Positions 2 to 45,736 of a stretch of DNA of 45,736 nucleotides are shown here, piece by piece. The notes under the pieces were generated by a model. It was given only the letters and a program-made list of their open reading frames with translations. It was not told the origin of the DNA and searched no databases. A program made the translations under genes and the position numbers. Position 1 is the first letter of the stretch. The number at the start of each line of letters is the position of its first letter. This DNA comes from Paludibacteraceae bacterium (lineage in GTDB: Bacteria > Bacteroidota > Bacteroidia > Bacteroidales > Paludibacteraceae). Location of the stretch: positions 1-45,736 of the forward strand of contig JAGCEW010000092.1 in NCBI GenBank assembly GCA_017650465.1. Reading direction: 5' to 3'.

Positions 2-622
2 GATCTGGAGGCATGGTGCAACATCGATTTTGGTGCATACGACTCATCCCCGTTCAGCCGTAATGGCTACTTAAATTATGTGGGAGGCGGAGATCTGTAT
101 GTGAATGGCACCAAAGTGACCACTTTGACCATTCCTGACGGCATTACTGAAATCAAGCATCATGCTTTCTACGGTTTCGCAGGTATTACGTCCATTGATT
201 TCAATCAGGTTACCTCTATAGGCGATGAGGCATTCAATGGGTGCCACGGTTTGAGTGAAGTCACTATTCCGGAAGGCGTGACAGCAATCGGGAATGTTGG
301 ATTCGCATATTGCACCCATCTGCAATCCATTTCTATTCCGGCATCGGCATCCTCTTTGGGAACCTCGATGCTGGCGGCCGATAATATGCTGACGGATATC
401 CATGTGCATTGGACGGAGAATATACCGGCTTGGCCGGAAAATTTCACCAAGAAATCTCCGCAGTCAAGTATCACCCTCCATGTGCCGTGTGCTGCGAGTG
501 ATTTATACCATGCAACTGACGGCTGGAACGGCTATAACCTCGAAGCCGAAGGCGGACCTTATACCATCACCGTCACCACCGACGATGCAAGCATGGGCTC
601 CGTGGCGATTACGGTCCCATAA
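2..622 (+). CDS. BspA-type leucine-rich-repeat surface protein. The 5' end lies outside the window. The C-terminus stops ~20 aa into an InlB-B-repeat-like domain.
   Basis: The reading frame is open from base 2 (DLEAWCNIDFGAYDSS...), so the ATG at 80 is internal. It contains repeated units of the type IPxGITxIxxxAFxGCxxLxSI. The tail is PYTITVTTDDASMGSVAITVP, followed by TAA at 620-622. Confidence 0.85.
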   Translation, partial: DLEAWCNIDFGAYDSSPFSRNGYLNYVGGGDLYVNGTKVTTLTIPDGITEIKHHAFYGFAGITSIDFNQVTSIGDEAFNGCHGLSEVTIPEGVTAIGNVGFAYCTHLQSISIPASASSLGTSMLAADNMLTDIHVHWTENIPAWPENFTKKSPQSSITLHVPCAASDLYHATDGWNGYNLEAEGGPYTITVTTDDASMGSVAITVP

Positions 623-707
623 CATCGTCATAACGATATAACTTTATAACCTCATAACGAAAAAAACAAATTAACAATATTATTAACAAACTAAAACACC
701 AATCAAA

Positions 708-1235
708 ATGAAACGTTTTCATGTAGTGCTCTGCGCAAGCCTTGTATGCGCAATGAACATGTTCGCTCAAACTCCGGCTTCGGACAGTAAGAATGTAGAT
801 TGCGGTAGCTCCGTAACCATCACCGCAACGCCGGCAGCCGGTTTCCACTTCGTACAATGGGAAGATGATGCCACCGCTCCCGCTACACGTACTATCTCCA
901 ACATCAAAGATGCGACGCTCAAGAACTACAAGGCTATCTTTGCTTCCAACCAAGCCATCGATCCGACTATTGACGACCCGAATAACCCAGATCCGAGCCT
1001 TGGTGACATCCTTCAACTCACTCCGAAGACCGATGACGACTGTCTTGAGTTTGAACATTGGAGCGACATCACCGATCCGACAGATCCGAACTATGCTGTC
1101 AATCCCCGTCCCTTCACCTACGAAGGTGTAGCACCGACCTTCACGGCTGTATTCAGAACGAAAGTATATACCGTTACGGTTAACGCGGACGATGACACCC
1201 AAGGTAGCGTAAGCATTACGCCGGTACTGCCCTAA
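708..1235 (+). CDS. Small secreted protein built from InlB-B-repeat-like (Flg_new_2-type) segments, with no C-terminal sorting domain
   Basis: The start is ATG in an A-rich context. There is a Sec-type signal peptide, MKRFHVVLCASLVCAMNMFAQ. Motifs include CGSSVTITATPAAGFHFVQWEDD and LQLTPKTDDDCLEFEHWSD..FTAVF. The protein ends with VYTVTVNADDDTQGSVSITPVLP. Confidence 0.75.
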   Translation: MKRFHVVLCASLVCAMNMFAQTPASDSKNVDCGSSVTITATPAAGFHFVQWEDDATAPATRTISNIKDATLKNYKAIFASNQAIDPTIDDPNNPDPSLGDILQLTPKTDDDCLEFEHWSDITDPTDPNYAVNPRPFTYEGVAPTFTAVFRTKVYTVTVNADDDTQGSVSITPVLP

Positions 1236-1270
1236 TCGGTCAGACTGCCCGAAGGGGCTAATGTCGAATA

Positions 1271-2053
1271 ATGCAACGTAGGTTGCTTTACATATTGTTT
1301 CATGCCCTTGCTGTGCCTTTGATGGCGCTCGAGGTGCCGTGCGGAACGTGGCTCACGCTACGGGCTACCGCTATGGAGGACTGGCATTTTGAGCGTTGGT
1401 CGGATGGTAACACCGACTCTGTGCGAGTGATTGAGATCACGTCGGACACAACGCTCTATGCTTTCTTTGCTGCCAATTGTGAGGAATACGCCAATCTGCC
1501 TGTAGTGGCTCTCTACGACTGGCTACTGATGCTGGATGTCCGTGCTATTCAGGCCAAAGGTTACTGGTTCGCCGAGAAGGATGTAGGGTGGTACCGCGTT
1601 CGTGGTACGCCTGACCCACTGACGGACAACACCGGCAAGGACGATGAATTTATCTGCCGCGGTTATTATCTCACCTTGGACAAGCACCTTGGCGGTACGG
1701 GCGATTATTATGCCGTGGTGGATGTCAGCAGCAGTCCGTCCGGTGTGCTGTGTACGGGACTGATGCGCTCACTCATCGTGCATTACTCGTCCGCGTCCTC
1801 TGCCGCACGACGCACACCGGTCTTGGAACCGACTGTCGTCCGGACCAACGCGCAGCAACGATTGCTCTATTTGGATGACCAGAGTCCGACCACGGTGGTC
1901 ATATACGATATGTCCGGACGACGGGTCTATAGCACGGAAGCCGACCGAGTGGACAAACTCTCTTTGAGTGCTGTCAATACGGCGGGGTGCTATCAGATGG
2001 TAGTCACCACCGGTGGCGAACAATATGTCTTACGTTATATAGTTGTGCAATGA
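1271..2053 (+). CDS. Secreted protein with an N-terminal partial B-repeat domain and a T9SS type A-like C-terminal sorting domain
   Basis: The N-terminus is hydrophobic (MQRRLLYILFHALAVPLMALE) and is followed by VPCGTWLTLRATAMEDWHFERWSDGNTD. The last ~75 aa (..TTVVIYDMSGRRVYSTEADRVDKLSLSAVNTAGCYQMVVTTGGEQYVLRYIVVQ) have the typical Por/T9SS CTD pattern. Confidence 0.8.
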   Translation: MQRRLLYILFHALAVPLMALEVPCGTWLTLRATAMEDWHFERWSDGNTDSVRVIEITSDTTLYAFFAANCEEYANLPVVALYDWLLMLDVRAIQAKGYWFAEKDVGWYRVRGTPDPLTDNTGKDDEFICRGYYLTLDKHLGGTGDYYAVVDVSSSPSGVLCTGLMRSLIVHYSSASSAARRTPVLEPTVVRTNAQQRLLYLDDQSPTTVVIYDMSGRRVYSTEADRVDKLSLSAVNTAGCYQMVVTTGGEQYVLRYIVVQ

Positions 2054-3103: not shown

Positions 3104-3135
3104 TTTGCACATCTCAAAAAAAAGCACTACCTTTG
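3104..3135 (+). promoter_or_regulatory. Bacteroidetes sigma-A type promoter for the holA operon
   Basis: TTTG at 3104-3107 and TACCTTTG at 3128-3135, with a 20-nt spacer containing A9. This matches the B. fragilis-type -33 TTTG / -7 TAnnTTTG consensus. Confidence 0.75.
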
Positions 3136-14961: not shown

Positions 14962-15034
14962 CACCCGAATTTGATATAGGGAATACAACTCAACTAATCA
15001 ACAATAATTGTTTAACTTTAAAATCAGTACGTTT

Positions 15035-18000
15035 ATGAGAAAAATTCATTTACTTCTCACAACGCTAATGCTGATAGCATTTAGCGTCGGTACAGCGTGG
15101 GCCGGCTCGTACAGCCTTACTCCGAATCAGGCGACTACGGGTAGTGAATCTACCAAGTACATCACTACCTTGACCGAGTTCACCCACAACAGTATCACTT
15201 GGAAGATGAATCAGTGGAATCCATCTTCTCTGCAGGTGAAAACGAACCAGAGTTCTGCAACTGCGGAATTTAGATTCTACAACACATCTGCTTTCCCCGG
15301 TAAAATCACCAAAGTTGTAATTACTTTTAAGGCTCTTACAATCAGCAACCCCGACGAGACCGGTTTTATGTTTGTGGGAGGAACGAGCGAAGTATCCGGA
15401 ACAACGGGCGGTACGAATGGCGTCTGGGATGAAGATAACAAGACAATAACCTGGGAGCCTGCTTCTACAGATAATTTCACATACTTTGCTTTCTACCAGG
15501 ATGGTAAAAAAGCAACAAGTAGTAACTACTTGGCAGAATCGGACGCGATTGTAGTTACCTACGCGGACGGTGGAAGTAGCACCACTCCTTCTATCTCTGT
15601 TAAGCAGAAAGGTAGTGCTATCACAGAGATTGATTTCGGCAATGTGGTTGAAGACACTCAGGATGAAGATCATGGTAAAGCTGCGGTTCAGACCTTTGAT
15701 ATTAAGGGCGCTAACCTGACAGACAAGGTGAAGTTGGAAATTTCCAGTACTCACGCCATGAAGATTTATGTCCCCGGTTACGCTTCTCCGTATTTCAATA
15801 ACCTCACTCTTACTCCAAAGAACGGAGCTATCGACACGACGATTACGATAACTTCTTCTACCATAGGAACGGGAGAGAAGACCGGTGTTTTGACCGTCAG
15901 CAGTTTAACTTCTACGGCGGACTTTACGGCTATTAACATCGACCTTAAGATCAACCTCCTTGAGCGAGTAGATCCTACATCTGTAGCTCTGAACAAGACC
16001 GAGTTAGCGATGGAAGTTGGAGACGAAGAAACGCTGGTGGCTACCGTTTCTCCGGAAAATGCAACCAACAAAAAAGTAAAATGGCAGTCAAGCAACTCTG
16101 CCGTTGCAGATGTAGATGAGAATGGTAAGGTAACGGCAGTAGGCGAAGGTACTTGTACTATCCGCTGCTATGCAGAAGAGAATTACTACACCTATAAATC
16201 GTGCGAAGTAACCGTTTCCGCTCACACCGTCAAAGCCGGTACATATACTATTGATTTAAACAAAGATTTGTATGGCGTAGCTAAGGGCAATAATGAAACA
16301 GAACAGAGTGCATCGCAAAATGATATTACGATAGTTTCCGGATGTGAGTCTTATGCATCTAATAAAACCTATTATGATGATACTCATATTCGTTATTATA
16401 TGGATAGTTATCTAAAATTATCTGCACCTACCGGATTTGTAATTACGGAGGTAGTGTTCACCGCCGGAGGAACATGGAATGGTTACTTTACTGTGAATGC
16501 AGGAGAATATGATAAAGATACCAAAAAGTGGACAGGATCAACAAGTGAAGTAATTTTCTCGTTTACATCTCAGAACCGAATAGCATCTATCAAGGTTACC
16601 TATGCGGCCGCTTCCGAGATCGCTTTGCCGAATATTTCCGGCCAGACTCCGTTCTATCCCTCTACTACGGTGACAATGACTATTGATACCGATGGTGCAG
16701 ATATTATCTATACCATGAACGGTGAAGACCCGTTAGGTGGAGATAACACCTATTCGCAACCGATCGTTTTGACGGAAACGAAGACCATTAAGGCGCGCGG
16801 ATTCAAGGGCGTAAAACTGGGAGAAGTCGCTTCAAAGACCTTCACGAAGGCTACGCCGATTAGTGTAACGGACGCTATTGCGGCTATTCCGAATGAGAAC
16901 GATGCGGTAGATAACGCGTTTGTCTATGGTTATGTTTGCACTTTGAGTGAGTCTGATCCGAATGCTAACGGCCAGATGACCTATTATATTTCGAAAGACG
17001 GTACAGAAACCAACCGCCTGCAGATTTATAAAGGTAAAGGTCTGAACAATGCTGCCTTTGCATCGAAGGAGGACATTGCTTTGGGCGATAAAGTAGTTAT
17101 ATATGGTCAGTTGAAGAACTATGGCGGCACGTATGAAATGAACTCCGGCAACTATATCGTTGAGAAAGTTGCGAAGGGTGATGTACAGAGTGTGGTTATC
17201 AGTGGCGATGCTACGCATGGCGCTTATGAAGGCGGTGATGCTTTCGATCCTGCAGGATTGAAGGTTACTGCAACTTATGCAAGCGGATATCAAGAGGATG
17301 TAACCGCTTCTGCTACGTGGTCGCCGGCAACTATCACTACACAGTCGGGCAACACAGATGTAACGGCTACCTTTGGTGGTAAGACCAGTGATGCCAAGAC
17401 GGTGAACATTACGCTCAATAAGTACACCGTTACCTTCAATACTTCCGTATATGGTGGTACTTGGGGTATTAAGAAAGGCGACAATTATATCAAAACCGGT
17501 AACTACTTCCCGAAGGGTACTGTCCTGACGGTAGTTACTGAAGCTGTTGCTGGATATAAGTTAGGTAGTATTACCGTGAACGATGCACCGCTGGAGGGCA
17601 ATGAGATTACAATCGGTACGGAGAATATCACCGTTGCCGTAGAGTTCGCAATGATTCAAGAAGGTGTGCTCGTTCTCTCGACCAACTCTTTGAACTGGGG
17701 CTCTATCAATGTAGGTACTAAGCCTCAGGATGTTCCTTATCAAACCTTCACGCTGACAGGTGGTAACTTAACACAAGGCCGCACCGTGAAACTGACGGCT
17801 CCGACTTGGTGCTATCTGACTCAAACTACTGCTAATCCTACGGCTGGCGGTAATATCGCAACAACCAGTTTCTATGTATATGTGAAGGATGCAACGCTTG
17901 AGACGGCTGGTGAGTATAGCGGTAATATCGTTATCTCCAGCGATGACCTCGCAAAAGATAGCTTGGTTGCTGTCAAACTGACTGTTACGGAGAAAAAGGA

Positions 18001-21000
18001 CGGTAAACTGACCCTGTCGAAGAACGTTGTGGACTTCGGTGCAAGCAAAATAGGTTCGTCGATTGCAAGTCAATCGTTCAAACTGAGCGGTACAGGCTTT
18101 ACGCCTAATGGTACCATCAGCTTGGCATTTGCCGGAGATAATAAAGACTACTTCGGTCTGATGACTAACAGTTACACTGCAGACGCTAATGGTGCTATCA
18201 GTGAAAAGAACGTGGAGATTTTGGTGGATGAAACAGCTTATGCTACCTATGGTGTACGTGACTGCCAACTCAAAATCTCGAGTGACGACCTGACAAGCGA
18301 CAGTATCGTAACAATCAAACTGACCGTGGGTGGCGTAGTAAGTACAACTCCGAGTCCGGTGGCATTGGACCTGGGCGATGTACTCAATAACGACAATCCG
18401 TCTCTCTATGGAAAGACCTTCCACATTAAGATTACTAACCTCAGTGCAAATAAACAAGCGCGTGTCGTTCCGTCTACGGCAAGTTTCTCTGTTGAGCCAT
18501 ATTATATAATTGCCAATGCGGATGGTGTGATTGACCGCGATGTAACCATCCTTCCGTATCTGAACGGCGGCGGTGCTGCGGTTTATAACGCAAACCTTGA
18601 GGTGGTATGTTCCGGAACGCGTGAGTTTAATGATATTAAAGTAGGTACAGTAACGATGAATCTCTTAGAGGCATATAAGGTTATTGTTCCTGAGATCTCT
18701 AACGGCTCACTCAGTTGGGACGGCGGTACAGCTCCGCAAGCAGCACGCCCGGGTACAACTCATACGCTCGTTGCTACTCCTGCTTCGGGTTACGAAGGTG
18801 GTACTATCCAAATCCTGAAGAACAGTGACGATAGTGATATTACAGAAGATGTGCTTGATGGTTCAACACTAACGATGCCCTCTTACAACATCAAGGTTGT
18901 TGTTAGCGGCTTCAAGCAGTCTGCTAAACCTTCCCTACCGATGTCTTGGAAATATGAAACTTATACCTTGACATTCGGCGAATTCAAAGAGCCCGCACTC
19001 TACTCGTCGCTCAAGATCAATGATAATCTCAAGAGTACGTACGGAGACCAGATTGTTATCACCAGTAGCAATACGAATGTAGCTACCTACACCAGCAAGT
19101 ACTCCGAGTATCAATGTTATACGGTATATAACAGCATCGTAGGCGCAGGTACGACAATCTTCACGGCTTACTTTGCCGGAGACGACACCTATGGTGAGAC
19201 AACGGTTACCTACACGCTGACCGTTAATAAAGCGGACGCAGGTCTCGCATGGAGCGCAAACGCAGCAACGGTTAAGTATGGCGCAAGCAACAATGTCTTC
19301 CCGACGCTGAGCAATCCGAATAACTTGACTGTATCTTATGAGTGTGCCCCGAATTGGATTGCTACCATTGATAGTAATGGTGCTATTACGATCGTCAATG
19401 TGGGCGAGGCAACTATCACGGCTAAGTTTGCCGGCAATAGTAACTACAACGCACAGACGGTTGAATACACGCTCACTATTGAGAAGGGTATTCCGGGATA
19501 CGAGTATCAGATTAACGGCTCAAAGGTAGAGGATGTATATGTGACCTATGGCGCTAAGGACAATGTCTTCCCGACATTGGTTAAGCCGGAAGACTTTGGC
19601 GTAAACTACAAGAGTTCTAACACGGCTGTAGCTGCTATTAATACTTCCGGTACGATTTATCTCTACAAAGCAGGTACAACTACCATCAAGGCTTGCTTCT
19701 GGGGAACTTCTCAATGGGAACCCGACACGGCTACCTTTGTCCTCCACGTGGCAAAGGGTACTCCGAAACTCGAATGGAACGCACAGTACACCCAGATTGT
19801 AAATGGTGAGGTGACTGTAGATATTTACGATAGTGCAGATGGACGCCAGTTACCGCATCTGAACTCTGATGCGCCGGACGGAGTTGTGATTACATCAAAC
19901 AATGAGAGCGTTGTGAAGATTAACGAAACATTCAAATATCCGGTACTGCAGTACGAAACCGGTGACGCAATCGTCACTGCTTCGTTCGCAGAGAATGACC
20001 AATACAATGCGAAGTCCATCAGCTACACCGTTCATGCAGTAGATAATATCCGCTATGAGTCCAACCTCCAGTGGAGAATTGGAACAGAGCAAGTTTCTTC
20101 CGCTTCGGTAACCTTGGCTGGTAATGACAATGTATTCCCAACGCTGTACAACCCGCGCGGAGTAACGCCTACGTATAGCAGTTCAAACGAAAATGTAGCT
20201 ACTATCAGCAACGGAACAATTACCCTTGTAGGAGCCGGTACTACGACTATTACTGCTTCCTTCGACGGTAACTATTCCTACAAGCCCTCGACTGCTACCT
20301 ATACGCTGACGGTGAATGCCGTTGCGAATATCTCTGTTGGTGGAGTATCCTCAATAGACTTTGGCACTGTTAATAAGGGTGCTTCTGTAGATGAGCAGAG
20401 TTTTACGCTCACCGGTTCTAACCTCACAGGAAACGTGAAAGTAACAGTAGCAACAGAGGGTAGTACGACTGCGTTCGTTACCAACGGATTCCGTCCGAGT
20501 AACACATTCACTCCGACTGATGGCGCTATCAATGCTTCTGTTGTAGTGATACCTTATACATCCAATGCCGGTAACTTCAATGGCTCGCTGACTATTCATA
20601 GTCTTACAGACGACTTTGAGGATATCGTCATTCCGCTGCATATTTGGGTGAAGGCTAAACCGACCATCACGCTCGAAGCCGGCACACAGGTTCACATGAC
20701 AGTGAAGAATGGTAACACCGTCATCAACAGCGGTGACGCAGTAGAGGAAGGAACCGTGCTCACGGTGGAGATCTCTATGGGTAGTACCAGTTGGAAACTC
20801 ACCTCGCTGACCGCGGGCGGCGTAGATATTATGGAATCCAGACAGTTCACTGTAGGTACCACTAATATCACCGTCGTGGCTACCAGTGATATGAAAGAAG
20901 ACTCAGACATCACTTGGAGTTCGACCGAAGTAGTCTATGCGTACACCGACGGCAGCAAGGCTACAGTTTGGCCGACTATCGAGAACCCGCACAACATCGC

Positions 21001-21763
21001 CGGTGTTACATGTCGTTCATCGAACGAGCAAGTAGCAAGCGTGGATAATAACGGTAATGTGACGATTCACAAAGAAGGTCAGATCTATATCTGGGTTGAG
21101 GTTAAGAACAATAACGACTACAAAGATGCAAGTGCAAGTTATATGCTCCGCGTTTGCGCACCCGACCATATTAATGTATCGGAGTGGTCTTCTCACCAAG
21201 TATCTTATGAATACGGTGACAACTTCAACTTCAACGGCTTTAAGGCTGAGTTGTATTACAATAACTATGGCGGTAAGCGTGATGTAACTGAGGAGGCAAC
21301 GTGGACTACGGACCCGGCTGCCATCACCGAAGATGGTAATATCACCGTCAATGCAACGGTGGGCGCTATCACCGGTTCGGTAAGCAACGTAAATGTAGTT
21401 GTTAGCAAGCACACCATTGCTATCAACTCCGCAACTCACGGAAGCATCGTTGTTATGCACGGTGACAATGTGGTTGCCAGTGGTGATAAGTTCGTCTATG
21501 GTACCGAACTGACCGTATCCGTAACGCCGGAAGAAGGTTATGAACTGAACACGCTGAAAGCTAATGGTGTTATTATTGAAGAAGGTACGTTCATCGTAAG
21601 ATCGGTAGATGTAACCTTTACTGCTACCTTCAAGCAATCACAAGCTACTGCGTTGGATAACACCACCATTGAGAACCGTCCGACGAAGATCATTCGCGAC
21701 AACAAGGTTTATATCCTTCGTGGCGATAAGATCTACACGGTAGAAGGTCAGTTGGTAAAATAA
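15035..21763 (+). CDS. Giant (2242 aa) secreted multidomain surface, adhesin-like protein
   Basis: The ATG at 15035 gives the signal peptide MRKIHLLLTTLMLIAFSVGTAWA; the 15008 start in the track is TTG. By eye it contains: a Big_2 domain (VALNKTELAMEVGDEETLVATVSPENATNKKVKWQSSN); a chitobiase-C/Fn3-like segment (GADIIYTMNGEDP..TIKARGF); an OB-like segment (VYGYVCTLSE..IYGQLKNYGGTYEM); two Big_3-like segments; five choice-of-anchor-D-like units (DFGxVxxG...QxFxLxGxNL); four InlB-B-repeat-like units; and six ~90-aa Ig-like repeats (..NVFPTLxNP..SSNxxVAxI..GxTTIxAxF..YTLTV). Confidence 0.9.
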   Translation: MRKIHLLLTTLMLIAFSVGTAWAGSYSLTPNQATTGSESTKYITTLTEFTHNSITWKMNQWNPSSLQVKTNQSSATAEFRFYNTSAFPGKITKVVITFKALTISNPDETGFMFVGGTSEVSGTTGGTNGVWDEDNKTITWEPASTDNFTYFAFYQDGKKATSSNYLAESDAIVVTYADGGSSTTPSISVKQKGSAITEIDFGNVVEDTQDEDHGKAAVQTFDIKGANLTDKVKLEISSTHAMKIYVPGYASPYFNNLTLTPKNGAIDTTITITSSTIGTGEKTGVLTVSSLTSTADFTAINIDLKINLLERVDPTSVALNKTELAMEVGDEETLVATVSPENATNKKVKWQSSNSAVADVDENGKVTAVGEGTCTIRCYAEENYYTYKSCEVTVSAHTVKAGTYTIDLNKDLYGVAKGNNETEQSASQNDITIVSGCESYASNKTYYDDTHIRYYMDSYLKLSAPTGFVITEVVFTAGGTWNGYFTVNAGEYDKDTKKWTGSTSEVIFSFTSQNRIASIKVTYAAASEIALPNISGQTPFYPSTTVTMTIDTDGADIIYTMNGEDPLGGDNTYSQPIVLTETKTIKARGFKGVKLGEVASKTFTKATPISVTDAIAAIPNENDAVDNAFVYGYVCTLSESDPNANGQMTYYISKDGTETNRLQIYKGKGLNNAAFASKEDIALGDKVVIYGQLKNYGGTYEMNSGNYIVEKVAKGDVQSVVISGDATHGAYEGGDAFDPAGLKVTATYASGYQEDVTASATWSPATITTQSGNTDVTATFGGKTSDAKTVNITLNKYTVTFNTSVYGGTWGIKKGDNYIKTGNYFPKGTVLTVVTEAVAGYKLGSITVNDAPLEGNEITIGTENITVAVEFAMIQEGVLVLSTNSLNWGSINVGTKPQDVPYQTFTLTGGNLTQGRTVKLTAPTWCYLTQTTANPTAGGNIATTSFYVYVKDATLETAGEYSGNIVISSDDLAKDSLVAVKLTVTEKKDGKLTLSKNVVDFGASKIGSSIASQSFKLSGTGFTPNGTISLAFAGDNKDYFGLMTNSYTADANGAISEKNVEILVDETAYATYGVRDCQLKISSDDLTSDSIVTIKLTVGGVVSTTPSPVALDLGDVLNNDNPSLYGKTFHIKITNLSANKQARVVPSTASFSVEPYYIIANADGVIDRDVTILPYLNGGGAAVYNANLEVVCSGTREFNDIKVGTVTMNLLEAYKVIVPEISNGSLSWDGGTAPQAARPGTTHTLVATPASGYEGGTIQILKNSDDSDITEDVLDGSTLTMPSYNIKVVVSGFKQSAKPSLPMSWKYETYTLTFGEFKEPALYSSLKINDNLKSTYGDQIVITSSNTNVATYTSKYSEYQCYTVYNSIVGAGTTIFTAYFAGDDTYGETTVTYTLTVNKADAGLAWSANAATVKYGASNNVFPTLSNPNNLTVSYECAPNWIATIDSNGAITIVNVGEATITAKFAGNSNYNAQTVEYTLTIEKGIPGYEYQINGSKVEDVYVTYGAKDNVFPTLVKPEDFGVNYKSSNTAVAAINTSGTIYLYKAGTTTIKACFWGTSQWEPDTATFVLHVAKGTPKLEWNAQYTQIVNGEVTVDIYDSADGRQLPHLNSDAPDGVVITSNNESVVKINETFKYPVLQYETGDAIVTASFAENDQYNAKSISYTVHAVDNIRYESNLQWRIGTEQVSSASVTLAGNDNVFPTLYNPRGVTPTYSSSNENVATISNGTITLVGAGTTTITASFDGNYSYKPSTATYTLTVNAVANISVGGVSSIDFGTVNKGASVDEQSFTLTGSNLTGNVKVTVATEGSTTAFVTNGFRPSNTFTPTDGAINASVVVIPYTSNAGNFNGSLTIHSLTDDFEDIVIPLHIWVKAKPTITLEAGTQVHMTVKNGNTVINSGDAVEEGTVLTVEISMGSTSWKLTSLTAGGVDIMESRQFTVGTTNITVVATSDMKEDSDITWSSTEVVYAYTDGSKATVWPTIENPHNIAGVTCRSSNEQVASVDNNGNVTIHKEGQIYIWVEVKNNNDYKDASASYMLRVCAPDHINVSEWSSHQVSYEYGDNFNFNGFKAELYYNNYGGKRDVTEEATWTTDPAAITEDGNITVNATVGAITGSVSNVNVVVSKHTIAINSATHGSIVVMHGDNVVASGDKFVYGTELTVSVTPEEGYELNTLKANGVIIEEGTFIVRSVDVTFTATFKQSQATALDNTTIENRPTKIIRDNKVYILRGDKIYTVEGQLVK

Positions 21764-43114: not shown

Positions 43115-45736
43115 ATGAAGCGAATATACTTCTTGTTCATCCTGTCTTTTTTAATTGGTTCATTAACAACCATTGCGAGTGCCCAATGTTGTCCTGATAG
43201 ACAAAAGGTCGGTCAGCGCGATGAGTTTCTGTATGAATATGACAATATCCAAATAGATACTTATTCATGCGGGGCGCATGGAGATGATGATTGGGTAACG
43301 ATTTTGTCAAATGGGGACATGTGGGTTGAAAACGACGAGGCAACTTTTCTTCGTGTTCGGGCTTGGTCTTCTCGTTCTTCAAATACTGACAATTATATTC
43401 AATTGTGTTGGTGGATAAGCACAAATGCGAGTAGATGGACACAAACTTATGCAAACGGAGTAGGTCCAAAGGCTGGGGATTATACGCTTTATGAACCTTA
43501 CATCTGGAATTATTGCGATAATATGTATTATGGTATATGTTATGGCAATAGTTGGAACTTTTGGGGGTGGAATGCCAACCAGTTTAATACATATTCTAAT
43601 GCTGCCCAACCGATACTTATTCAATATAAATTTTCGAGAGATCTTTCTTGGGTATGTCCGTTTTCTTCCTATGCTTCGAGAGCCGGTGGCCCGACGAATA
43701 ACACAAGTAGAATCACTCATTTCAATAGTTTTACGGTAACAGTGGCCGAAGGAGATGGAGGTAAATTGTACATACAAATCGGAGGACAGGATTGTAATTC
43801 ACAACCCGCCGTTACTATCGGAACACGCACGAATACAAATGTGAATAAACTGACGACATCGGTTGTCGGTTCTGGATCTGTAAGTGTTAATCCCGATTGT
43901 GAATATCACACCACAGGCGATAACATTACTCTCACTCCGGTACCAAATAATTCTTCTGTCTGCTTCACGGGTTGGACAGGTTCCGATGCTGCTTATGTAA
44001 TGGACAATGGTAATGGTACATATCGCCTTACTATGCAAGCGCGAGATATGAATATTACCGCTAATTTCGGCGCCTGTGAAAAAGATAGTGTCATTGTTGA
44101 TACCATTTGTGCGGGAGTGATATATGACAGAGAGTACCTCAAAAATATACGTCCTTATTTACCCGCGAGTCAAGTAAATAGCTTTGTGGAGACAACGCGC
44201 GTTCCTAATCCTGCCAAAGATGCGGATACTACCGCAGTTTGGACAGGTACAATCTCAACAGCCGAAGGAGTTACGAATTACACCATCAAAGTCCTAACAG
44301 CCAAAGCCTATAACAATTCCGCCACGCCGATAGAACGTGATTTCTGTTACACGGACACGGAAGATAATACTACTGGCGAAAACAACTTGCGTACTTTCTG
44401 GAATAGACACACACTCGTTGATCCTACAACAGGAAATCAGTTGTCCTATCCGACCAACGTATCACAATCCTTCCTCGCCGAAGAAAGATTGACCTCGCGC
44501 TTCAATTGCGACTCGGTTATTACTTACAGAATTACGGTTAATCCGATAGTGGTAGTTCCGGCGCCGCGCGTTGAGATTTGTAGCAGTCAACTTCCATACT
44601 CGTGGCTCGATAACCACGTCATCACAGGCGAAGAGAGCAGGGGGGATACGGTACACCGCAAGCTGCAGCCGAACGACCCCTGTTACACGGTATTTGTCTT
44701 GAGCGATTTGGTAATCCACGAGCCGGATTTAATTATAGACACGGTACAGGTGGAAACCTATCCCTTCTCATGGAAAGGCTTTACGATAAACTCCTATGAC
44801 GAGGCGGCGACAAATGGCGTAATCCACAAGTGGAATCAGTTTGACTGTGACTCCACCGTACGCCTGTTCATCATCGAGAATACCTACGAAACAGCACAAA
44901 TCTGTAACGGTGCGTCCTACGACTGGCCCAACCATCCCAAATATCAGAACCTTAGAGCCCCGACGGACTATTTTGATACCATCCGTTCGGTCCGCACAGG
45001 AGTGGACAGCGTATACGCTCGTCTTACCCTCACCTTATCCCCTGTCTATGAAGATATCACGGATGGTATGACCATCTGTTCTTCTGCACTGAGCGAATTT
45101 ACCTGGGAAGGTTTACATTTCTCGCTCGACAACCTCGAACGGACGAAGACACTTGAATCCTCAAAGGGGTGTGACAGCACGGTCACTTTCACCCTTACCG
45201 TGTCCGATGCTTATGAGATTCAGGACGGCGCCTCAGTCTGCGAAAACGAATTGGCAGAATTCACTTGGGAAGGTGAATACTTCACGCCCGACGAACTCTC
45301 CAAAACAAAGACCTTTACCGCAGCAAACAACTGTGACTCTATAGTTACCTTCACCGTCACCTTACTTCCCACTTATACGGACATACAAGCTGGTGACATA
45401 ATCTGTGACACGGAGTTGCCCTATGAGTGGAGACACGGTAACACCCTTATCGAGACCTTCACCGAGGCAGGAACAGTCACCAAGACCTTGCAGACCATTA
45501 ACGGCTGTGACTCCACTGTCACCTTCACCCTTACGGTTAATCCCACCTATAGGGACATACAAGATGGTGACATAATCTGTGACACGGAGTTACCCTATGA
45601 GTGGAGAAACGGCAACACCCTTATAGAGACCTTCAATGAGGGAAAAACCGTCACCAGGACCTTGCAGACCATTAATGGTTGTGACTCCATCGTCACCTTC
45701 ACCCTTACGGTTAATCCCACATATAGGGACATAAAA
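43115..45736 (+). CDS. Large secreted repeat protein, 3' end outside the window (874 aa or more). It has an unrecognised Trp/Tyr/Cys-rich N-domain, one InlB-B-repeat-like domain, then eight or more Cys-bracketed ~55-60-aa modules.
   Basis: This ORF is not in the supplied ORF track because it has no stop. I translated it by hand from the ATG at 43115 to base 45736 and found no stop. The signal peptide is MKRIYFLFILSFLIGSLTTIASA. The B-repeat-like segment is SVVGSGSVSVNPDCEYHTTGDNITLTPVPNNSSVCFTGW. The modules have the form IC..ELPYEW..G....F......T.TLQTINGCDS.VTFTLTVNPTY.DI. Confidence 0.85.
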   Translation, partial: MKRIYFLFILSFLIGSLTTIASAQCCPDRQKVGQRDEFLYEYDNIQIDTYSCGAHGDDDWVTILSNGDMWVENDEATFLRVRAWSSRSSNTDNYIQLCWWISTNASRWTQTYANGVGPKAGDYTLYEPYIWNYCDNMYYGICYGNSWNFWGWNANQFNTYSNAAQPILIQYKFSRDLSWVCPFSSYASRAGGPTNNTSRITHFNSFTVTVAEGDGGKLYIQIGGQDCNSQPAVTIGTRTNTNVNKLTTSVVGSGSVSVNPDCEYHTTGDNITLTPVPNNSSVCFTGWTGSDAAYVMDNGNGTYRLTMQARDMNITANFGACEKDSVIVDTICAGVIYDREYLKNIRPYLPASQVNSFVETTRVPNPAKDADTTAVWTGTISTAEGVTNYTIKVLTAKAYNNSATPIERDFCYTDTEDNTTGENNLRTFWNRHTLVDPTTGNQLSYPTNVSQSFLAEERLTSRFNCDSVITYRITVNPIVVVPAPRVEICSSQLPYSWLDNHVITGEESRGDTVHRKLQPNDPCYTVFVLSDLVIHEPDLIIDTVQVETYPFSWKGFTINSYDEAATNGVIHKWNQFDCDSTVRLFIIENTYETAQICNGASYDWPNHPKYQNLRAPTDYFDTIRSVRTGVDSVYARLTLTLSPVYEDITDGMTICSSALSEFTWEGLHFSLDNLERTKTLESSKGCDSTVTFTLTVSDAYEIQDGASVCENELAEFTWEGEYFTPDELSKTKTFTAANNCDSIVTFTVTLLPTYTDIQAGDIICDTELPYEWRHGNTLIETFTEAGTVTKTLQTINGCDSTVTFTLTVNPTYRDIQDGDIICDTELPYEWRNGNTLIETFNEGKTVTRTLQTINGCDSIVTFTLTVNPTYRDIK
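45380..45736. repeat. In-frame 174-bp (58-codon) tandem repeat, two full copies plus the start of a third at the window edge
   Basis: The copies are 45380-45553 and 45554-45727, and GACATA begins again at 45728. By hand alignment I count 17 mismatches in 174, about 90% identity. Upstream modules are much more diverged. Confidence 0.9.

Follow-up and report, generated by a model that had tools for sequence, protein, structure and literature searches.

Two B-repeat domains divided between three neighbouring genes of a Paludibacteraceae bacterium, and a possible multi-subunit surface adhesin

The stretch of DNA analysed here, called the window below, comprises 45,736 nucleotides (nt) of a Paludibacteraceae bacterium (order Bacteroidales; GenBank assembly GCA_017650465.1, contig JAGCEW010000092.1, positions 1 to 45,736 of the forward strand). 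At its left-hand end lie four consecutive genes on the + strand, listed in Table 1 together with their features, and this paper is mainly concerned with the first three of them, genes 1 to 3. A sequence-only reading of positions 2 to 2,053 had described these three as one BspA-type adhesin of the secretion system of type IX (T9SS), cut twice at the same loop of an InlB B-repeat domain, and had offered two explanations, a decayed adhesin gene or a split-domain design in which the end of one subunit completes the next, and had favoured the latter. The open reading frames (ORFs), their ends, the spacers of 85 and 35 nt and the change of frame that it reported were all confirmed when the sequence was read again. 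The profiles of Pfam and NCBIfam also bore out the overall layout, that is, leucine-rich repeats (LRR), B-repeats and a type A C-terminal sorting domain (CTD), with the CTD on gene 3 alone. Gene 4, the full size of gene 1 and the 2-5 subunits of chains elsewhere are additions to that reading. The names tip, adaptor and base, as well as donor and acceptor, denote the roles that we propose for the three proteins and their ends.

Gene 1 is read in the frame of nt 2, and its protein ends in ...PYTITVTTDDASMGSVAITVP, followed by the stop codon at 620-622. The match of this fragment to LRR_5 (PF13306, BspA type) scores 76.2 bits against a cut-off of 27.7. In gene 2, the signal peptide comes first, then a truncated B-repeat head and another domain of four strands, and last a C-terminal hairpin; the protein ends in ...VYTVTVNADDDTQGSVSITPVLP. 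Gene 3 starts with MQRRLLYILFHALAVPLMA, with predicted cleavage before LEVPCG, and here the signal peptide is followed by a truncated B-repeat head, then by a beta-rich middle domain and finally by the CTD. The CTD reaches 32.0 bits with TIGR04183 compared to a cut-off of 23, and with both a CTD and a signal peptide the gene 3 product qualifies as a type A cargo of the T9SS. On the other hand, Pfam and NCBIfam gave no CTD match in genes 1 and 2, both of which end in a hairpin of 20-22 amino acids (aa). Genes 1 and 3 lie in one frame and gene 2 in another, and the ATG of gene 4 overlaps the stop codon of gene 3.

Table 1. Genes and features of the four-gene locus, with positions in the window
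Feature	Position	Strand	Evidence or remark
Gene 1 (tip subunit), 3' end only	2..622	+	LRR_5, E value 2.8e-21, aa 36-135 of the fragment
Gene 1 donor hairpin YTITVTTDDASMGSVAITVP	560..619	+	Positions 1-15 of the local B-repeat profile; stop codon directly after
Spacer between genes 1 and 2, 85 nt, AT-rich	623..707	+	Without Bacteroidetes -7 box and without terminator
Gene 2 (adaptor subunit), 175 aa	708..1235	+	
Gene 2 signal peptide MKRFHVVLCASLVCAMNMFA, cleavage before Q	708..767	+	Kept in 100 homologues; pN/pS 0.56
Gene 2 acceptor head	780..947	+	Flg_new_2 positions 14-71 of 73; first two strands missing
Gene 2 donor hairpin YTVTVNADDDTQGSVSITPVLP	1167..1232	+	Positions 1-16 of the local profile; stop codon 1233-1235
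Spacer between genes 2 and 3, 35 nt	1236..1270	+	
Gene 3 (base subunit), 260 aa	1271..2053	+	
Gene 3 acceptor head, aa 22-69	1334..1477	+	Flg_new_2 positions 21-72; local profile 20-65; four strands in the model
Gene 3 T9SS type A C-terminal sorting domain	1820..2050	+	TIGR04183 at aa 198-258; modelled beta-sandwich at aa 184-259
Gene 4, 299 aa	2050..2949	+	Signal peptide, GVRGGG motif, ...YYAF end and then a basic tail

The complete gene 1 is present in an 11.2-kb contig (L001), where it encodes about 1,708 aa without a CTD. The full-length protein begins with the signal peptide MLHRTRRILLLLALLIGSAGA... and contains three LRR_5 blocks and several intact B-repeats of the Pfam family Flg_new_2 (PF18998, divergent InlB B-repeat; profile length 73, gathering score 23.6 bits). 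In this protein, an internal copy of the last LRR block precedes an intact B-repeat (...RTVSIASNNATYGLVQYNDETPVASIEKQIPCTTSFVVKAIPAEGYHFVEWSDG...), and the terminal copy of the block is followed only by the hairpin and then by the stop codon.

We now describe how a B-repeat is divided at each of the two gene boundaries. The head of gene 2 matches Flg_new_2 only in the interval given in Table 1 (41.9 bits, E value 1e-10), and the head of gene 3 alone, with 18.3-22.2 bits, stays under the cut-off. When tails and heads were artificially concatenated, the Flg_new_2 alignment became full-length, running from position 1 or 2 to position 72 with 27.7-42.6 bits. For gene 3, the head with a tail scores 28.5 bits compared to 22.2 bits without it, which takes it over the Pfam cut-off. 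A match to the whole domain is obtained only from the reconstituted domain of tail and head.

A local B-repeat profile of 65 positions was also built from 281 intact interior B-repeats of related loci. The head of gene 2 covers positions 15-61 of this profile, and from the positions of the two tails and the two heads, both cuts fall in the same loop, between strands 2 and 3. The mature gene 3 protein begins at about profile position 19-20, and the tail of gene 2 extends 3-5 residues past position 16. These profile alignments, which map the break points, agree with the sequence-only reading, in which the tails of genes 1 and 2 had been taken for the opening strands of a B-repeat, the heads of genes 2 and 3 for the remainder of that fold, and the two gene boundaries for cuts in one loop of one domain type.

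Several cysteines that flank the truncated heads are invariant or nearly so (aa 32 and 112 of gene 2; aa 24, 70, 161 and 240 of gene 3). The cysteine of a V-x-C-G motif opens each truncated head, this being the invariant Cys32 in gene 2, and it may form a disulfide that stabilises the open head. Several of the fused relatives described below are without the head cysteine and have YSYG, YAYG or VASG instead.

The same design was found at related loci. When one genome per GTDB species was scanned, 80 loci were obtained, almost all of them in metagenome-assembled genomes (MAGs) of Paludibacteraceae or Bacteroidales, and their habitats are rumen, reticulum, omasum, caecum, horse faeces and human gut. 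About 30 species-level genomes keep the order of tip, adaptor or adaptors, base and gene 4, in chains of 2-5 members, and this order recurs, with tips of 700-2,040 aa, where gene 2 is only 47-56% identical. At a locus where gene 3 is 48% identical, the upstream partners are instead proteins of 135 aa and 444 aa with the same kind of ends. Among about 30 loci with a full-length base gene, each junction examined has the same form. The upstream protein ends in Y/F-x-I/V-x-V...G-x-V-x-I/V, then 1-6 aa and the stop codon, and the downstream protein starts with a signal peptide and continues with ...V-x-C-G-x-x-V-x-I-x-A-x-P-x-x-G-Y/F-H-F. The spacer between the two ranges from -17 to +200 nt across the loci, with variable frames.

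For the pairing statistics, the local profile was scanned over 1,399 + strand ORF segments of 84 related loci, where a donor tail means a partial match beginning at profile position 1-3 and ending with the protein itself. There are 68 donor tails among these segments, and the break is at position 15 or 16 in 63 of them. For 57 of the 68 donors, there is an ORF within 260 nt whose first B-repeat, near the N-terminus, begins at position 12 or later; five further donors precede heads beginning at 8-11, and most of the remaining donors are at contig ends. Viewed from the heads, a donor stands directly upstream of 61 of the 83 truncated heads when 4.0 would be expected, which is about 15-fold (binomial P 2e-61), and most of the other 21 heads have upstream tails that look hairpin-like by eye but lie under the score threshold. 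Since the tip is donor-only, the base acceptor-only and the adaptor one of each, the numbers of donors and acceptors match along the chain.

Two further kinds of arrangement were observed in the related loci. The first, called the type 2 junction, occurs in chains of 4-5 genes (L020, L022, L023, L024, L025, L026 and L028; for example, L026 6619-8947). The first protein of the junction ends in a Cys-containing hairpin, Y-x-I-x-V-N-Q-D-C-x-x-x-I-E/Q, and the protein after it opens with a complete, Cys-containing hairpin of its own; the junction is either an orphan donor or a different joint, which may use a disulfide. In the second, the hairpin/head junction is found between small subunits (L033 12975-14780, and also L034, L040, L045, L046, L048, L050 and L052). 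The last gene of these operons is a distant relative of gene 3 or is related to it only in the head, and the junctions in these operons indicate that the connector is used beyond this one operon type.

More than 100 protein clusters contain genes 2 and 3 as stand-alone proteins of unchanged size. For gene 2 there are 122 homologues, of which the 120 listed are 139-194 aa long, 47-98% identical and all with Flg_new_2; gene 3 has 221 homologues, which among the matches listed have about 224-274 aa and identities down to 45%. In alignments of 26, 100, 24 and 90 members, conservation extends to the signal peptides as well as to the truncated heads and the tails. Of the tail residues in gene 2, G166 never varies and V156 and V168 hardly do, and these are core-facing positions of strands 1-2. 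In several genomes the start codon of gene 3 is TTG or GTG at the same site, and the signal peptide stays in frame. Two of the gene 3 homologues (P0123 and P0212) have the N-terminal domain of the Obg GTPase fused in frame at a shared ...VP(C/V)GT word; they are probably chimeras of assembly or gene calling.

The ratio of non-synonymous to synonymous differences (pN/pS) was computed against nine orthologous loci, with synonymous sites near saturation (pS 0.5-0.8). It is 0.34 for the tail of gene 2, 0.38 for the gene 2 body and 0.36 for the head of gene 3, compared to 0.36-0.39 for the bodies overall, and the signal peptide of gene 3 has 0.36 (that of gene 2 is given in Table 1). Tails, heads and signal peptides are thus under purifying selection like the rest of the proteins. 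A survey of orthologous loci, as the sequence-only reading had proposed, gave the same picture, with the split kept in all close and moderately distant relatives and single chains appearing only at identities of 35-37% or lower. No frameshift or insertion scars were seen at the junctions. We therefore regard genes 1 to 3 as conserved, functional split genes with near certainty.

Uninterrupted relatives do exist. In one MAG, two genes (L036, 1,094 aa; L037, 1,910 aa) encode proteins in which the base module ends a single chain, and P0249, P0252, P0281 and P0296 are fused as well. The tail of gene 2 concatenated with the mature gene 3 protein is colinear with the L036 protein across the junction (37% identity over 275 columns, E value 7e-44). 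In a profile search over 1.84 billion cluster representatives, the best 150 matches were inspected, and these include 11 stand-alone bases of 245-288 aa and at least seven representatives of 50%-identity clusters that carry the base module at the extreme C-terminus of chains of 430-4,481 aa. In those chains, the hairpin is intact and is followed by a long variable loop between strands 2 and 3, at the site of the cut in the split forms. A rough neighbour-joining tree, drawn without support values, has the fused and the split forms intermingled, which suggests that the two states have interconverted and are functionally equivalent.

Genes 1 to 4 were also considered as a transcription unit. A Bacteroidetes -7 box, TACCTTTG, lies about 30 nt upstream of the gene 1 start in L001, and the next such box on the + strand that precedes a gene is at 3128-3135, before holA. 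The spacers between genes 1 and 4 have no -7 box on the + strand, the sole match within the operon being at 935-942 inside gene 2, and there is no terminator-like site between genes 1 and 3. Because of these positions, the missing terminator and the overlap of genes 3 and 4, we read the four genes as one putative operon of this Bacteroidales bacterium. A scan for sigma-70 promoters and terminators gave nothing above chance. Along the window, TACCTTTG boxes on the + strand, at 3128-3135, 7617, 10713, 14954, 24112 and 35578, stand 30-50 nt before gene starts, and the pattern TANNTTTG has 41 matches compared to 25 expected, which is useful for delimiting operons in the window.

Gene 4 is always found downstream of base genes and fused adhesins, and an ORF like it follows both the L036 and the L037 gene. 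Members of its family have about 300 aa; behind the signal peptide comes a GxRGGG motif, and the ...YYAF end is extended by a conserved, basic C-terminal stretch (...R.D.R.H.NRY..W). The protein is probably an outer-membrane beta-barrel, as judged from weak matches to DUF3575 (E value 0.02) and to OMP_b-brl_2 (E value 1e-3 in two of 13 members, and one precomputed match). Neither PF11751 nor TIGR03519 (PorP/SprF) was matched in Pfam and NCBIfam, and a profile search found no sequence match in the PDB.

Structure models were obtained for the monomers. In the model of gene 2, with a predicted local distance difference test score (pLDDT) of 87, there are two four-stranded domains, and no strand is assigned to the tail, so that it is not docked in cis as a sheet. 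The model of gene 3 (pLDDT 85) consists of a four-stranded head, the beta-rich middle domain and the CTD sandwich. These monomer models are compatible both with complementation between subunits and with its absence. When the two models were compared with the PDB by Foldseek, generic beta-sandwiches or strings of fibronectin type III domains were retrieved, as well as weak matches to GhpA, the grappling-hook protein of the T9SS, and to an InlB B-repeat. A coupling score of the mutual-information/log-odds type was also derived from 221 non-redundant intact B-repeats. In the intact domains, weak couplings connect strand 1 to the last strand, and strand 2 to strands 3-4, and from these couplings the hairpin would sit inside the sheet and not at its edge.

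On balance we favour, with somewhat better than even confidence, the proposal that the three genes encode a multi-subunit surface adhesin, a fibre of tip, adaptor and base that is joined by hairpin complementation in trans and is exported and anchored by a single CTD. A Sec signal peptide on each subunit would take it to the periplasm. Once this peptide had been cleaved off, the N-terminus would be free no more than a few residues away from the cut loop, and a hairpin-less, four-stranded B-repeat would be exposed at the front of the gene 2 and gene 3 proteins. Into this head, the two-strand C-terminal hairpin of the upstream protein would insert, completing the fold and giving the chain of LRR tip (gene 1), adaptor (gene 2) and base (gene 3). 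The complementation step itself is quite probable. As an acceptor and a donor are both present on the adaptor, further copies of it could also join on and make the stalk longer.

Proteins move through the T9SS in folded form, and a CTD is required (PMC9251779); the CTD is removed at the surface, where the new C-terminus is anchored (PMC4804311). As the CTD is present only on the base, it would have to export and anchor the whole chain, which would cross the translocon assembled and folded. The chain would then be held at the surface by the base, at its processed C-terminus, and perhaps also by gene 4, possibly a dedicated membrane partner of the chain. The tip, an LRR_5 adhesin with a signal peptide but without a CTD, fits a surface role. 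For the co-export of CTD-less subunits through the T9SS, however, we put the chance slightly below even. More broadly, and with a chance somewhat below even, such chains could form a third, independently evolved class of bacterial surface fibre assembled by donor strands. In this class, a B-repeat nicked in the loop between strands 2 and 3 would be the universal connector of Sec-exported subunits, one CTD supplied in trans would let the T9SS export and anchor hetero-oligomers, tips of 440-2,040 aa would be swappable on a conserved base, and adaptors might polymerise into stalks of varying length.

Several observations weigh against the proposal. The Pfam score of the gene 2 head is not raised by adding a tail (43.1 versus 41.1-42.6 bits), and the models of the heads are confident even where the hairpin is absent (pLDDT 85-96). 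The tail of gene 2 has pLDDT above 90 and yet is assigned no strand. With weak couplings and imperfectly aligned concatenates, the coupling score is alike for native, shuffled and swapped pairings. Some chains contain donors without a vacant acceptor, namely the type 2 tails that stand before a head with a complete hairpin, and there are orphan donors in L027, L033 and L059. The identity of gene 4 rests on weak matches. Also, a literature search that covered few subscription journals found no T9SS transport of CTD-less partners.

Some of these observations would suit a different wiring of the same parts, which we consider unlikely. The adaptor might close on itself while the tip plugs into the base, or adaptors might polymerise head-to-tail into a stalk of variable length. 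The tails within one locus are indeed alike, the Pfam scores do not discriminate between pairings (42.6 bits for the gene 2 tail with the gene 2 head, 27.7 bits for the gene 1 tail with the gene 3 head), and the coupling score has no preference for adjacent pairs. Nevertheless, the donor always comes directly before the acceptor in gene order, the gene 2 tail is not docked as strands on its own head in the monomer model, and multidomain adaptors of 300-565 aa would need to form rings for closure in cis.

It is improbable to a like degree that the split is a fission scar without reassembly, so that the proteins act separately, with tip and adaptor remaining in the periplasm or leaving by another route, and the tails are kept for stability, sorting or quality control. 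The heads that are modelled without a hairpin, the donors without an acceptor and the missing precedent for T9SS passenger export all fit such a reading. However, the alternating residues of strands 1-2 that face the core are retained in the tails, where selection is as strong as elsewhere, the break recurs at the same position in 63 of 68 donors, and donors and acceptors are adjacent about 15 times as often as expected. The interleaving of fused and split forms also argues against a mere scar, and an LRR adhesin restricted to the periplasm makes little sense.

The first explanation of the sequence-only reading, a decaying single-chain adhesin gene with fragments from recent stops or frameshifts, is very improbable. 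It is true that the three ORFs add up to the usual single-chain layout and that fused relatives exist. But more than 100 protein clusters, from about 30 genomes at species level, keep the same split and signal peptides, identical copies of gene 2 occur in contigs of three independent metagenomes, and at the gaps there is new signal-peptide coding sequence instead of scars. With the split, signal peptides, heads and tails all conserved at a pN/pS of about 0.35 and with near-saturated synonymous sites, the pseudogene reading is refuted; the disruption is present in close relatives, there is no relaxed selection, and pseudogene status was rejected. Programmed recoding by frameshift, read-through or bypass, which would join the ORFs into one chain and for which the common frame of genes 1 and 3 and the short spacers might speak, was likewise rejected and has next to no probability, because spacers and frames vary among the loci, the hydrophobic signal peptides would land in a domain loop and are themselves conserved, and no conserved recoding element was seen.

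The window contains other surface proteins with B-repeats. At 15008-21763 (+), there is a surface protein of 2,251 aa with Big_2, Fn3_assoc, CHB_HEX_C_1 and one intact Flg_new_2 (aa 2136-2211). The protein closes with a motif of about 30 aa, ...KIIRDNKVYILRGDKIYTVEGQLVK, in place of a full CTD, and a clean terminator hairpin comes next. The same short ending also closes large ORFs in three of the related loci (L043 4001-7711, L035 5042-8596 and L004 12156-14126). At 43115-45736 (+), and extending beyond the window end, a secreted protein has a signal peptide and one intact Flg_new_2 (aa 246-318), followed by tandem Cys-containing repeats of about 45 aa (...NGCDSxVTFTLTVNPTY...).

If the subunits join as proposed, the T9SS can carry pre-assembled non-covalent complexes and CTD-less proteins, and cargo predictions, which count CTD-bearing proteins only, would miss such passengers. 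Giant adhesins of Bacteroidota could then diversify by the exchange of whole tip genes on a constant base, an idea that fits the very variable tip sizes beside conserved adaptors and bases. A new fold and a new secretion route would be added to the donor-strand assembly systems, and a small natural pair of hairpin and acceptor would be a possible protein-joining tag. The hosts are abundant uncultured Paludibacteraceae of rumen and gut, in which the system may matter for attachment to plant fibre, host mucus or other microbes.

When compared with known systems, the closest in content are the single-chain BspA-type LRR/B-repeat T9SS adhesins of Bacteroidales, with the same families in the same order (LRR_5, Flg_new_2, base module and type A CTD). 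The BspA-like proteins of Tannerella forsythia are an example. Fused relatives such as L036 and L037 even share the gene 4-like ORF downstream. The difference is that here the layout is spread over three polypeptides (2-5 elsewhere), which have their own signal peptides and are separated by cuts in B-repeats, and two of them are without a CTD. The literature search mentioned above, with few subscription journals covered, found no description of a split B-repeat.

Type V pili of Bacteroidia (FimA/Mfa1) have operon-encoded tip, shaft and anchor subunits, and a C-terminal strand fills an N-terminal groove that is opened by proteolysis (PMC4789730, PMC5954841). The proposed likeness is that of a Bacteroidales fibre from operon-encoded subunits with a C-terminal donor entering the next N-terminus. 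On the other hand, the present system has the B-repeat fold, a two-strand hairpin, a T9SS CTD on the base and signal peptides of the signal peptidase I type, while the pilins are lipoprotein precursors; the cysteines in the signal regions here are not at a lipobox and are not conserved in tips. The groove would be opened by removal of the signal peptide here and by gingipain there, and no FimA/Mfa1 pilin match was obtained with Pfam and NCBIfam. In chaperone-usher pili, an incomplete beta-domain is completed by the strand of a neighbour, which gives a non-covalent but very stable fibre. Their donor is a single N-terminal strand, they belong to another phylum and secretion route, and they need a periplasmic chaperone and an usher, neither of which is in this operon of tip, adaptor(s), base and gene 4 only.

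The gingipain-adhesin complexes of Porphyromonas gingivalis (RgpA/Kgp/HagA) are also non-covalent surface complexes of several pieces that depend on the T9SS. They are held at the surface by way of CTD processing (for this processing, PMC4804311). Their pieces are cut from a polyprotein once it has been exported, whereas separate genes are used here. The SprB-SprF pairs are similar in that a gene for a large T9SS cargo is followed by a gene for an outer-membrane protein of about 300 aa, but gene 4 has no PorP/SprF match and the cargo CTD here is of type A and not type B. The InlB B-repeat of Listeria (PDB 2y5p) belongs to the same domain family as the split module, and its known examples are intact and single-chain. 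The LRR_5, Flg_new_2 and type A CTD families are all known, the fused relatives are giant T9SS adhesins of the ordinary kind, and the way in which the parts would be assembled resembles donor-strand complementation in chaperone-usher pili and in type V pili.

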